Source: a bacterium
Lineage (GTDB): Bacteria > Pseudomonadota > Alphaproteobacteria > Micavibrionales > UBA2020
DNA: 64,000 bases
Reading direction: 5' to 3'
NCBI GenBank assembly: GCA_029945425.1
Contig: JAQSDV010000007.1
Location: 278,325 to 342,324, forward strand
Below the pieces are notes generated by a model that searched no databases, was not told the DNA's origin, and saw only the letters and a list, made by a program, of their open reading frames with translations. Positions 51,501 to 55,206 of the stretch are shown here, one piece after another. Numbering within the stretch: position 1 is the first letter of the stretch; each line of letters begins with the position of its first letter. Position numbers and translations under genes: made by a program.

Positions 51501-54463
51501 ACGGCGGAGAGAACCGTATCATTGCCCTCATTCGCGACTTCCGTGACTTTATCGAGCGCGTTGTCGACCACATAGGTATCGTCGCCTCCGCTGCCGATCA
51601 TGCTGTCTGCGCCGACGAGGCCATCCAGCGTGTTATTGCCGATATTGCCCGTGATCGTGTTGACAGAAGCGTTGCCGGCTCCATTGATACCTGTGCTGCC
51701 GGTCAGGATCAGGTTCTCAAGGTCGGTTGCAAGCGTATACGTCACGCCGGAGTTGACGGTGTCCGTGCCCGCTGCTGCGGCTTCAGAGACAACGTCCCCG
51801 GCATTATCAACAAAGTACACATCGTTGCCGCCGCCCCCGATGAGGGTATCCGCACCGGCATCACCGTCGAGGGTGTTTGCCGCGCTGTTGCCTGTCAGGA
51901 CGTTCACAAGGATGTTACCCGTGCCGTGGCTGGCAAGCGTGCCGCCCAGCGTCAGGTTCTCGATGTTGGTGCCCAGCACATATGTGCCGCTCGCCAGCGT
52001 AGCGAGAATGGTGTCCGTGCCTTCGGAGGCGTTTTCAGAGACGATGTCCGTCGCGCTGTCGACGAGATAGGTGTCATTCCCCTGCCCGCCGATGAGGGTA
52101 TCGACGCCCGTGTTGCCATCGAGAGTGTTAGCGCCGGTATTACCCGTCATGACGTTCGCGGAAGCGTTACCGGTGCCGTTCAGGTTGGAGCCGCCGGTCA
52201 GGATAAGGTTCTCGACGTTGGTGGCAAGCGTGATGGTTGCGCTGGACTGGACAGTGTCGGTTCCCGAGCTTGCCGCCTCGCTGACGATATCGCTACCGCT
52301 GTCTACAATATAGTAATCGTTGCCCGTGCCGCCGATCAGGGTGTTCGTGTTTGCGTTCCCCGTCAGCGTGTTGTTGCCGGTGGTGCCGGTCGCAACAAGC
52401 GCAGCGCCTGTGATGGTAAGGTTTTCGACTTCGCTCGAGATTGTGAAGTTGACGCTTGATTCAACAGTGTCGTTGCCGCCAAGCGCAGCTTCGCTGACCA
52501 CATCGCTGGCATTGTCGACGAGATAATAATCGTCACCCGTGCCGCCGATCATGGTGTCCGCGCCGGAGCCGCCGTTCAGCGTATTGTTGCCGCTGTTGCC
52601 GGTCATCGTATTGACGACGCTGTTACCCGTGCCGTTGATGTTCGAACTGCCCGTGAGGGTCAGGTTTTCGAAGTCGGTTGCCAGTGTCCAGGTGACGGAA
52701 GACTGCACGATATCCGTGCCAGCTGCCGCCGATTCCACAAGCGTATCGCTCAGGCTGTCGACGACATAGGTATCGTTGCCGGTGCCGCCCGACAGCGTAT
52801 TGGTGCCGCTGTTGCCGGAAAGGGTGTTGTTGCCGCTGTTTCCCGTCGCATTCAAGTTGGAAGAACCGGTCAGGATAAGGTTTTCAACATCCGTGCCGAG
52901 CGTGTAGGAGATGCTGGAATAAACCGTGTCGGTGCCGGAAGTGACCGCTTCACTGACGACATCGCCTGCGTTGTCCACATAATATAGGTCATCGCCCGCC
53001 CCGCCGATCATGGTATCGGCACCCGTGCCGCCATCCATCGTGTCGCTGATCGTCCCCGTGCCTGCATTCAACAGGTTATTACCGGTATTGCCGACCATGT
53101 AGTTGACGCCGGTATTGCCCGTCGCCGTCAGGTTGGAAGAGCCCGTCAGGGTGATGTTTTCGAAGCCGGTGCCGAGCGTCCAGTTGACGGTGGATATGAC
53201 GATATCCGTGCCCGAAGCGTCAGAAAGTACATCAAGGGTGTTATCCACCATAAAGGTGTCGTTGCCCGCTCCGCCGATCATGCTATCCGCACCGGTGCCG
53301 CCATCCAGCGTGTTATCGCCGCCGTTGCCTGTCAGGATGTTGACAGCCGTGTTGCCGGTTGCATTGATGTTGGCAGATCCGGTCAGCGTCAGGTTTTCAA
53401 CTTCGGCCGTCAGCGTGTACGTGATGCTCGACTGGACGGAATCCGTGCCCGATGCCGCAGCCTCGGTAACGATATCGGACGCACTATCAATGATGTAGAC
53501 ATCGTTGCCCGTGCCGCCAGCGAGCGTATTGGTGCCCGCGTTGCCGGTCAGCGTGTTCGCGAGCGTGTTGCCGGTCGCGTTGATATTGGCAGTACCTGTC
53601 AGTGTCAGGTTCTCGACGTTCGTGCCGAGCGTGTAGCTGAGGCTGGAAAGCACGGTATCCGTGCCTTCGGAAGCATTTTCAGACACGACATCGCTGGCAT
53701 TTTCAACGATATAAGTATCGTCATTGGTGCCGCCGATCATTGTATCCGCACCCGCACCGCCATCCAGCGTGTCATTGCCGCTGCTGCCGGACATGCTGTT
53801 CGCCGCACTGTTGCCGGTAAGCGTGTTTGCAAGCGTGTTACCCGTGGCATGGATAACAGAGGTGCCGGTGAGAATGATATTTTCGACGTTGCTGGCAAGC
53901 GTATGCGTCGCGCTCGCCATGACTGTATCGGTGCCCGCGCCCGAGCCTTCGCTGACGAGGTCGCTTGCGTTATCGACAATATAAGTGTCGTTGCCGAGGC
54001 CGCCGATCATGGTATCAGCGCCAGCTGCGCCATCGAGCGCGTTGTTGCCGGCATTGCCGGTCAGGACGTTGACAGCACTATTGCCGGTACCGTTGATATC
54101 GGCGGTACCGGAAAGAGTGAGATTCTCGAAGTTGGTGCCGAGCGTCGTGTTGATGCTGGCAAGTACAGTGTCCGTGCCTTCGGCAGCGTTTTCAACCAGC
54201 GTATCGAGCAGGTCCGACACCACATAGGTGTCATTGCCGGTGCCGCCCGCAAGCGTATTGACCGCGCTGTTGCCGGTCAGCGTATTGTCAGCAGAGTTGC
54301 CGGTGCCGTTAATCGCGGAAGTGCCTGCCAGGGTCAGGTTTTCGAAGTTTGTGGCAAGCGTATGGGTAAAGCTGGAGAGGACGGTATCTGTGCCCGCAGC
54401 CGCGCCTTCGACCAGCGTGTCTGCCGCGTCGCTATATATATATGTGTCGTTAACCGCCTTCTT
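48536..54463 (-). CDS. RTX-type giant repeat protein body (1975 codons open) with a type I secretion C-terminal domain. It has no usable start codon in its own frame for the first 80 codons.
   Basis: There are roughly two dozen units of about 80 aa of the form GGxGNDTYxVDxxxDxVxExxxxGTDTVxSSVxxTLxxxxENLTLTGxxxINGTGNxxxNxxTGN, with GGxGxD nonapeptide motifs. The C-terminus (ADIFLFS, DVIDLGDLLAAY, IVSVDRDG, GNLIVT) resembles the VCA0849-type T1SS target domain. The track ORF starts at a GTG at 54223, but the frame stays open and repeat-like up to the TGA at 54464-54466. Confidence 0.8.
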   Translation of the reverse strand, partial: KKAVNDTYIYSDAADTLVEGAAAGTDTVLSSFTHTLATNFENLTLAGTSAINGTGNSADNTLTGNSAVNTLAGGTGNDTYVVSDLLDTLVENAAEGTDTVLASINTTLGTNFENLTLSGTADINGTGNSAVNVLTGNAGNNALDGAAGADTMIGGLGNDTYIVDNASDLVSEGSGAGTDTVMASATHTLASNVENIILTGTSVIHATGNTLANTLTGNSAANSMSGSSGNDTLDGGAGADTMIGGTNDDTYIVENASDVVSENASEGTDTVLSSLSYTLGTNVENLTLTGTANINATGNTLANTLTGNAGTNTLAGGTGNDVYIIDSASDIVTEAAASGTDSVQSSITYTLTAEVENLTLTGSANINATGNTAVNILTGNGGDNTLDGGTGADSMIGGAGNDTFMVDNTLDVLSDASGTDIVISTVNWTLGTGFENITLTGSSNLTATGNTGVNYMVGNTGNNLLNAGTGTISDTMDGGTGADTMIGGAGDDLYYVDNAGDVVSEAVTSGTDTVYSSISYTLGTDVENLILTGSSNLNATGNSGNNTLSGNSGTNTLSGGTGNDTYVVDSLSDTLVESAAAGTDIVQSSVTWTLATDFENLTLTGSSNINGTGNSVVNTMTGNSGNNTLNGGSGADTMIGGTGDDYYLVDNASDVVSEAALGGNDTVESSVNFTISSEVENLTITGAALVATGTTGNNTLTGNANTNTLIGGTGNDYYIVDSGSDIVSEAASSGTDTVQSSATITLATNVENLILTGGSNLNGTGNASANVMTGNTGANTLDGNTGVDTLIGGQGNDTYLVDSATDIVSENASEGTDTILATLASGTYVLGTNIENLTLGGTLASHGTGNILVNVLTGNSAANTLDGDAGADTLIGGGGNDVYFVDNAGDVVSEAAAAGTDTVNSGVTYTLATDLENLILTGSTGINGAGNASVNTITGNIGNNTLDGLVGADSMIGSGGDDTYVVDNALDKVTEVANEGNDTVLSAVTWTLGNYVENLTLTASGTINGTGNTLDNVMTGNSGNNTLTGAAGSDTLTGGAGTDILIGGADNDVYIVDSSDTVSEASAQGTDTVQADFAYTLGANVENLTLTGTSSINGTGNTLDNIITGNSGNNTLIGGAGNDTYYVGEGTDIVSENAAEGTDAVIASTSWTLSSNVENLVLDGFDDMDGTGNTLDNTITGNSAINILSGSSGADTLDGKENADTLMGGTGNDVYIVDNANDIISEMAAEGTDSVQTSVTYTLSAEVENLTLTGVNTIHGTGNASVNIITGNSNNNTLDGGAGADTLTGGGGNDTYFVDNASDLVSEAAASGTDHVQSSVTWTLGSNFENLTLTGASTINGTGNTLDNIITGNDAVNVLSGGDGADTLDGGIGADTLIGGIGNDIFIVDNASDVTSENASEGTDIVQSGVTWTLGTNFENLTLTGTSAINGTGNSVVNTITGNSGNNTLSGAVGADTMSGAGGDDTYIVDDAGDIVIDTSGTDTVESSVTYTLVSGIENLTLTGSSNINATGNSGNNTLTGNSGNNTLAAGAGDDTYVWTSAADTIVENASEGTDTVLSSLTLTLGSNLENLTLTGSSNINATGNSLDNTLTGNSGNNTLAGGTGNDTYIWDSATDTIVENASEGTDIVLSSLTLTLGSNLENLTLSGSSAINGTGNTLDNVMTGNSAVNTLSGGGGNDTLDGGAGIDTLIGGTGNDIFIIDSTSDVVSENAAEGTDTVQSYVTWTLGTNFENLTLLGFDTVNGTGNSVANTITGNAAVNTLSGGDGNDTLDGGAGNDLLIGGIGNDLFIADSTSDVVSENASEGTDTVQSSVHWTLGVNIENLILTGSTALNGTGNSAANIMTGNSAINTLDGGSGNDTLDGGGGNDILTGGANADIFLFSPGTAYTGVATISDFSTGQSDVIDLGDLLAAYDPLTKVLTDFVKIEDSGANSIVSVDRDGLGVTYGWTQVATLTGVTGLTNEAALVASGNLIVT

Positions 54464-55206: not shown

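Follow-up and report, generated by a model that had tools for sequence, protein, structure and literature searches.

We analysed a window of 64,000 nt (positions 278,325 to 342,324 of contig JAQSDV010000007.1, assembly GCA_029945425.1; GTDB lineage Micavibrionales, UBA2020), on the minus strand of which a giant RTX gene is found in two pieces: an upstream open reading frame (ORF) bearing an HExxH motif, hereafter the head, and a long downstream frame of RTX repeats, hereafter the body. The locus is very probably a deletion derivative of a single giant substrate of a type I secretion system (T1SS), the frame break between the two pieces being the scar of an out-of-frame deletion of ~3.6 kb. What remains in the window is most likely a gene that died recently, on a mobile island that is itself decaying; we infer that neither the head product nor the body product still functions, and that the lesion is young.

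Retranslation of the locus gave the following picture (coordinates are collected in Table 1). The sequence statements made in the original prediction about the upstream ORF (55206..54334), namely that it carries an HEMVH motif and has no signal peptide, all check out, and the repeat frame is indeed the -1 frame relative to that of the head. The repeat frame comprises 1,975 open codons: it opens immediately 3' of the TGA at 54466-54464 and is closed by the stop codon at 48538-48536. Its first canonical start codon is the GTG at 54223, which is preceded, back to the TGA, by 80 open codons devoid of any start. These 80 codons (KKAVNDTYIYSDAADTLVEG...) are genuine repeat sequence: their DNA is 70-87% identical to that of relatives. 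The same holds for the tail of the head ORF, which includes RRRLTTHIYIATR and had been described as mis-framed repeat DNA: when read in the body frame, this DNA is 70-87% identical to L001 and L002, the loci that carry the closest relatives of the body (P0004, 84% amino acid identity, and P0005, 82%, respectively). A single indel that would fuse the two ORFs and keep all repeat-like sequence in frame is possible only within 54452-54463, as predicted, and the break does sit there.

The nature of the break became apparent from the comparison with L001 and L002, to which the window DNA is collinear, with 76% identity over 5.9-6.4 kb. The BLASTN alignments of the window to both loci begin exactly at position 54451. 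Ungapped identity to L001 and L002, computed over 30 nt, is 0.07-0.40 upstream of 54451 and 0.63-0.90 from 54451 on, with a step from 0.27-0.30 to 0.80 at 54451 itself; across the same point, L001 and L002 are 0.70-0.97 identical to each other, with values of 0.83-0.97 on its upstream side. The relatives read ...GNSGANSLVGG(T/S)G immediately before this point and NDTYIYDD... immediately after it, i.e. the break falls in the middle of a nonapeptide. Position 54451 corresponds to residue 1190 of P0005, in which an FrpC-type self-processing module (SPM) starts at residue 7, and to the GSTGDDTYIYDD point near residue 1418 of the L006 ORF. Missing from the window relative to these proteins are a linker, the SPM, a region related to HCBP and the first RTX blocks, that is ~1,190-1,230 codons or ~3.6 kb. 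The ancestor would therefore have been ~3,400 aa long, like P0006, P0011 and P0034. The break is thus not the simple indel in an otherwise complete gene that had been proposed, since it coincides with a homology breakpoint and with the loss of these codons. Consistently, a Pfam search of the head plus the body found no SPM (PF26745) in the window copy.

In relatives from other metagenomes, the head and the repeats belong to one continuous ORF (L005, L006 and L007), as would be the case for parts of one ancestral gene. The head ORF of L005 runs in frame into SPVVLDLDGDGVEL..., a stretch that shares 52% identity with residues 6-164 of P0005. L006 contains one ORF of more than 1,463 codons, in which an HEIGH head (ending near residue 215) is followed by the SPM (residues 219-371) and then by GSTGDDTYIYDDANDVLVE. 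In L007/L008, an HELRH head continues in frame into the same SPM-bearing region. Note that the L006 and L007 heads are more distant HExxH heads than that of L005. The comparison with orthologous loci, which the original prediction had put forward as a check, therefore places the head and the RTX repeats in a single ORF; a separate head is found only in a frameshifted copy, L009/L010 (two identical loci, maybe from the same sample). There, the 219-aa HEFTH head ORF and the SPM ORF are offset by +1 at a G7 run (11840-11846); loss of a single G would bring the two ORFs together, and the downstream one is cut at 608 aa. On the basis of sequence comparison, the head is assigned as the N-terminal domain of a giant RTX protein because homologous heads run on in one ORF and because the head profiles match.

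The SPM was recognised from the following matches: PDB entry 6SJW matches profile A1 (E 2e-22) and residues 219-371 of L006 (E 2.2e-24), and Pfam annotates both PF26745 (SPM) and PF06594 (HCBP_related) in P0005 and in the L001 protein. Downstream of the SPM, HCBP-related sequence and RTX blocks of irregular structure occupy ~1,000 residues in the relatives before the regular repeat body begins. In intact relatives, the native layout consists of a DUF2927-like gene followed by a gene encoding the HExxH head (~220-250 aa), the SPM, the HCBP-related region with the first RTX blocks, a long RTX body and a C-terminal secretion signal.

How the window copy arose from such a gene can be proposed in some detail. 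A non-homologous deletion of ~3.6 kb would have fused the linker behind the head (...HCHDPSDAE) to the inside of an RTX nonapeptide (between GGxG and NDTYIY). With a deleted length that is not a multiple of three, the head ORF would read ~40 mis-framed repeat codons and then stop, and the 1,971-codon body would be left stranded, with no start codon, ribosome-binding site or promoter of its own. We infer that one deletion occurred in a formerly complete gene, in preference to the illegitimate joining of a foreign head module. Note, however, that the 5' modules of this giant RTX family are clearly mosaic, since the DNA homology between L001 and L002 starts only at position 7036 of L001; the consequences are the same whether the junction resulted from an internal deletion or from the joining of a foreign head.

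As for the junction sequence itself, a search for insertion sequence (IS) or transposon ends and inverted repeats revealed only short repeats at chance level. Two short matches, a 16-nt direct repeat (54455-54470 and 54403-54418) and a 7-nt GGCGGTT match to L002 that is offset by 5 nt, were treated as chance because the similarity of the head-side flank to the body is itself at chance level: it is no greater than in 37% of the other windows taken from the head and from the 445-aa ORF that precedes it. An (AT)5-like tract, ACATATATATATAG, lies at 54433-54446, just inside the body, where it encodes T-Y-I-Y. This tract is conserved in L001 and L002 (CCTATATATATGA and CCTATATTTATGA, respectively) and, being conserved coding sequence, was rejected as the cause of a slippage responsible for the break.

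The junction was recovered in a second assembly. L012, a 3,590-bp Logan contig obtained by k-mer assembly of run SRR23006905, is 100% identical, without gaps, to window positions 57564-53975 and thereby includes the 445-aa gene and the head as well as the junction, beyond which it takes in 477 nt of the body. A basecalling or assembly indel, one of the causes originally considered, is therefore unlikely, as L012 reproduces the junction base for base. Exact and gapped DNA searches of the JGI metagenomes returned no match to the junction.

Several points nevertheless weigh against a recent, inactivating deletion. L012 may derive from the same reads as the metagenome-assembled genome that contains the window, in which case it represents an independent assembly but not independent data, and an intact allele may co-exist with the one assembled. 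The left breakpoint is not placed to the base: the sole close homologue of the head, that of L005, shares 43% identity with it and is truncated where its contig stops. The junction may also have once been in frame and have suffered a second hit within the 12 nt. Lastly, the body shows no sign of decay: it is open over all 1,975 codons, and its ratio of nonsynonymous to synonymous substitution rates (dN/dS) is 0.08 on the window branch, compared with 0.06 and 0.10 on the other two branches (three-taxon Nei-Gojobori analysis; dS about 1). An open body with a low dN/dS fits a very recent lesion and, equally, a body that is still in use. Given a dN/dS of 0.08 with dS about 1, the lesion would have to be recent relative to the divergence of these sequences, unless the body is still used.

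The explanation that survives best beside the deletion, though we consider it unlikely, is that a head-RTX fusion of ~2,223 aa devoid of SPM is a real gene, cut by a one-base indel (a mutation or a sequencing error) in 54452-54463. Indeed, a one-base insertion, for instance in the A3 run of GCTGAAAGAAGG, yields ...PSDAEKKAVNDTYIY... and a single ORF of 2,223 codons; the body is free of decay; and L009 demonstrates that one-base homopolymer indels do split the head from the SPM in this family. The size of ~2220 aa given earlier for the fused product is correct as arithmetic (head residues 1-248 plus 1,975 codons make 2,223 aa), but it does not describe the native protein, whose ancestor had ~3,400 aa, and the fusion should not be taken as the native product. 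The main difficulty is one of coincidence. Illegitimate joining disrupts the frame in two cases out of three, and a random one-base indel has a chance of ~1/500 of falling within those 12 nt. In a gene of 6.7 kb, the indel would thus have landed by accident within 12 nt of a rearrangement breakpoint that was defined on other grounds (prior ~0.2%), whereas an out-of-frame deletion junction requires no such accident. In addition, the L012 assembly is identical over the junction, the long uninterrupted ORFs in the rest of the window point to a low indel error rate, and no relative joins the head directly to the repeats. Recent pseudogenisation, as initially suggested, thus appears right in kind, the victim being a substrate of the FrpC/ApxIVA type (see below), but a one-base indel does not appear to be its cause.

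It is more doubtful still that the locus consists of two working genes, one encoding a 290-aa HExxH protein and the other an RTX protein that lacks a head and is initiated at GTG 54223 or at a non-canonical start codon. Head-less RTX proteins with repeats of this type do exist, since P0002 and P0014 begin directly with repeats, and the body retains both its T1SS signal and a low dN/dS. The 1,975-aa translation of the body contains 22 stretches of PF00353 RTX repeats (tandem GGxGxDxUx nonapeptides; E 6.2e-124) upstream of its C-terminal secretion target domain. However, translation of the body on its own finds little support in the DNA: among the first 11 ATG/GTG codons of the body (first 1.2 kb), i.e. 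GTG 54223 and the next ten in-frame starts, none is preceded by a Shine-Dalgarno sequence apart from a weak AAGG at 53653, promoter-like and terminator-like matches do not exceed chance level, and the 80 start-less codons 5' of GTG 54223 are true repeat sequence. As for the 290-aa product, it has no export signal and its last 40 residues are mis-framed repeat; moreover, the head is never a separate gene in relatives except in the G7-frameshift copy. In the window, the head and body frames differ and no intact, start-bearing ORF links a functional domain to the secretion signal. The two ORFs should accordingly be annotated as one disrupted gene (internal deletion plus frameshift) rather than as two products, a hypothetical protein of 290 aa and an RTX protein of 1,895 aa. 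A further RTX giant without a head, P0014 (2,626 aa; 53% identity to the body), appears to be located on the same contig as the window. Long ORFs are also present on the plus strand, antisense to the RTX body (window 48165-54626; e.g. 50519-52459, 646 aa, and 53849-54484, 211 aa); they look like by-products of the biased composition of the repeats, not genes.

We find it highly improbable that a programmed -1 frameshift or a hungry-codon shift at AGA-AGG bridges the head and the body and yields some fusion protein. The appeal of this idea is that AGA and AGG are rare, stand in tandem exactly in the permitted interval, and that the shift needed is -1. The rarity of the two codons, presumed in the original prediction, is borne out: they account for 5.4% of the arginine codons in 13 background genes (AGA 2.0%, AGG 3.4%). 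The window is not, however, high in GC, as had been presumed of the genome: its GC content is 56.6%, and the 13 background genes have a GC content at third codon positions (GC3) of 0.70. The zero-frame codons at the junction read GCU GAA AGA AGG CGG UUA; they contain no slippery X XXY YYZ heptamer, and -1 tRNA re-pairing at GAA/AGA/AGG/CGG is impossible. No stimulatory RNA structure was detected downstream (minimum free energy -31.4 kcal/mol versus -28.9 +/- 3.4 kcal/mol for shuffled sequences, z = -0.74). In Escherichia coli, tandem rare arginine codons promote +1 shifts, not -1 shifts, and a +1 shift at AGA-AGG would here meet a TAA four codons on, after KEGG. Furthermore, the site is a deletion scar that has no counterpart in the continuous ORFs of relatives. 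That a -1 shift at AGA-AGG lets the cell export a shortened, SPM-less HExxH head-RTX fusion, which would explain the 1,975 open codons, therefore strikes us as very far-fetched.

Lesions elsewhere in the family lead to the same view. In L001, an in-frame TAG at 9021-9023 (GAG in L002) splits the copy into a 1,139-aa head/SPM part and the 2,292-aa P0004. Together with the G7 run of L009/L010 and the junction in the window, this makes three different lesions at three places, and hence argues for repeated decay, not for a conserved recoding device. The surroundings of the locus in the window are damaged as well, since the island contains the 3' half of an IS3-family transposase gene, a truncated methylase gene and the stub of an E1-E2 gene.

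Finally, an assembly chimera, in which a head-bearing locus was wrongly joined to a different RTX gene, is conceivable insofar as the source is apparently a metagenome-assembled genome, the assembly of RTX repeats is difficult and the paralogue P0014 apparently lies on the same contig, but it has next to no credibility: mis-joins happen at shared repeats and keep the frame, whereas here the left side is unique and resembles the body no more than expected by chance, leaving a repeat-mediated mis-assembly without a substrate, and a second assembler arrived at exactly this junction, followed by 477 nt of the body.

The head proved difficult to place by direct searches, appearing to be a complete orphan among 15 billion proteins. 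Searches of 5.8 billion proteins, of 1.84 billion cluster representatives and of the GTDB genomes retrieved only the window's own protein, as did a two-sequence head profile run against the JGI metagenomes; Pfam, NCBIfam, PHROGs and PADLOC gave no above-threshold family match. At relaxed thresholds, the HExxH region of the head matched only DUF6782 (E 0.061) and Peptidase_M91 (E 0.079), both sub-threshold. A PDB profile search with the head alone gave no match, and an AlphaFold model computed without an alignment was unusable (predicted local distance difference test score, pLDDT, of 33). Likewise, none of the 120 best matches to the body is a full-length protein with an HExxH head. The explanation is that the one close homologue of the head is truncated where its contig stops and is for that reason absent from protein databases; it was reached through the neighbouring gene. 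The L005 ORF that follows P0123, a homologue of the 445-aa protein, is 39-43% identical to the window head over ~216-268 residues (E 3e-50). When the window and L005 heads were combined into a profile, this matched, in the region of the HExxH helix, one built from the heads of L006, L007, L009 and L001 (probability 94.8%, E 4.8e-8). The HExxH motif is present in five of the six heads, including HEMVH in the window, HEIGH in L006, HELRH in L007 and HEFTH in L009; L001 has NEMGN instead. The head is not a metzincin, as it reads HEMVHVAQFLN, lacks HExxHxxGxxH and has no M10 match in Pfam or NCBIfam, even at E values of up to 5. In the window, GC3 is 0.41 in the head and 0.74 in the body. The step in GC content (43% in the head, 59% in the body) was considered as a sign of foreign DNA and dropped, since the same step is seen in every relative, continuous ORFs included.

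The organization of the intact relatives is reminiscent of known RTX proteins. The SPM is a Ca2+-triggered module that cleaves an Asp-Pro bond at its own N-terminal boundary and is able to cross-link the N-terminal fragment which this cleavage sets free (PMC7078468); FrpC of Neisseria meningitidis and ApxIVA of Actinobacillus pleuropneumoniae are 'clip-and-link' RTX proteins that contain it (PMC7078468, PMC5233953). Like these two proteins, the intact relatives combine an N-terminal functional domain, an SPM, RTX repeats and a T1SS signal, and a dedicated small gene lies directly upstream, an arrangement that recalls frpD-frpC. The differences are equally clear. The window copy has lost the SPM entirely, the proteins of the relatives are much larger (~3,400 aa), and the HExxH head is unrelated to the N-terminus of FrpC. 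In place of the Asp-Pro of FrpC and ApxIVA, the relatives have Ser/Thr-Pro at the SPM edge: the proline of the SPM is preceded by Thr in L001, L006, P0005 and P0034 and by Ser in L005, L007 and L009, in no case by Asp. The Asp-Pro scissile bond is thus lacking in the relatives, and the site is deleted in the window. The serralysin-like logic proposed earlier holds for the general T1SS layout of M10B proteins (an enzyme head, Ca2+-binding RTX repeats and a C-terminal T1SS signal), as does the stated absence of the metzincin motif, but FrpC and ApxIVA are the closer relatives. Indeed, it is only the repeats of the body that match the serralysin model NF035945, with a score of 365.9 bits that falls short of the cutoff (500), the window head has neither HExxHxxGxxH nor an M10 Pfam match, there are ~20 large repeat blocks instead of one short RTX domain, and intact relatives have an SPM between the head and the repeats. 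The locus also resembles the frameshifted adhesin or toxin pseudogenes found on islands, in that it is a giant, rearranged repeat gene on a recombinase-bounded island with truncated neighbours and lesions in relatives. It differs from them in the nature of the lesion, a clean internal deletion of 3.6 kb instead of a homopolymer indel or an IS insertion, and in that the remaining 5.9 kb are open.

The mechanism is an ordinary out-of-frame deletion, and the gene family found on the way is the more interesting by-product. It is a small and seemingly undescribed family that couples a DUF2927-like gene to a giant T1SS substrate in which an ORFan HExxH head precedes an FrpC-type SPM, with Ser/Thr-Pro at the junction. 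If these SPMs still cleave, a metalloprotease-like head would be released after secretion, which would extend the known clip-and-link chemistry.

Table 1. Features of the RTX locus and of the island that carries it (window coordinates)
Feature	Coordinates	Strand	Remarks
Head ORF	55206..54334	minus	290 aa; HEMVH at residues 146-150 (54771-54757)
Authentic head coding sequence	54452..55206	minus	~248-251 codons; HExxH-bearing, putatively zincin-like N-terminal domain without signal peptide
Out-of-frame tail of head ORF	54334..54451	minus	...TTHIYIATRQ... to ...SKT followed by stop; repeat DNA in the wrong frame
Frame-break interval	54452..54463	minus	deletion junction within 54452-54459; TGA closing the body frame upstream at 54464-54466
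RTX repeat body	48536..54451	minus	1,971 codons and a stop; orthologous to P0004 and P0005 but truncated at the 5' end
First ATG/GTG/TTG of body frame (GTG)	54221..54223	minus	without Shine-Dalgarno sequence
C-terminal type I secretion target domain	48572..48790	minus	TIGR03661, 40.5 bits (cutoff 17.6); residues 1892-1964 of the 1,975-aa translation
Partner gene, divergent DUF2927-like, 445 aa	55220..56557	minus	N-terminal hydrophobic segment; ends 13 nt before head ATG
Mobile island carrying the RTX locus	43441..58592	minus	ends syntenic with L002 (methylase 71%, DUF3489/DUF2924 80% amino acid identity)
Large serine recombinase	43441-44964	minus	at one island end
DUF2924 gene	44948-45379	minus	
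DUF3489 gene	45376-45699	minus	
JAB/Cap3-like deubiquitinase gene, 163 aa	45934-46425	minus	
E1-E2 stub, 82 aa	46371-46619	minus	matches only the last ~70 positions of E1-E2 (Cap2-like) defence proteins
Alpha/beta-hydrolase (PHB-depolymerase/esterase-like) gene	47453-48367	minus	directly downstream of RTX body
IS3-family transposase 3' half (rve core)	57041..57540	minus	PF13683 E 2.6e-29; PF00665 E 1e-12; phrog_157 positions 356-489/580
ParB-N6/N4 methyltransferase	57360-58592	minus	other island end, next to mnmH and selD

The gene encoding the 445-aa protein is a constant companion of the head. A homologue lies directly upstream of the head-bearing RTX gene in L001, L005, L006, L007/L008 and L009, at a distance of a few to ~25 bases (28 nt in L005) in the loci with downstream DNA. 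The family comprises P0123-P0128 and a 407-aa ORF of L001 that is 26% identical to the window protein (E 1e-17). All eight members match PF11150 (DUF2927), albeit weakly (best E 6.9e-9), and the window protein shows no similarity to FrpD, a further difference from the FrpC system. A GTDB scan with the family returned one locus, L011 (4587-5427; from a metagenome-assembled genome labelled Micavibrio aeruginosavorus), in which the homologue is split over two frames and is followed by neither a head nor an RTX gene; this locus is uninformative. In L005 and L006, a gene for a LuxR-type regulator (Autoind_bind plus GerE) is found divergently upstream of the DUF2927-like gene (656-1387 and 3202-3933, respectively); in the window, an IS3 fragment occupies this position.

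No gene for a type I ABC transporter or a membrane-fusion protein turned up among the island ORFs and neighbours scanned. The JAB gene and the E1-E2 stub that precedes it look like what is left of a ubiquitin-like defence system after truncation; in L002, the syntenic island carries genes of a Bil system instead. The esterase-like gene is absent from L002 and has a counterpart with 83% amino acid identity downstream of P0004 in L001. At the other end of the island, the IS3 fragment, with an IS end near 56985, abuts or replaces the 3' end of the methylase gene: matches to the methylase family stop ~80 residues before the C-terminus, and both family and L002 homology end near 57507-57600. The L012 contig begins at 57564, just upstream of the start of the IS fragment (~57540).

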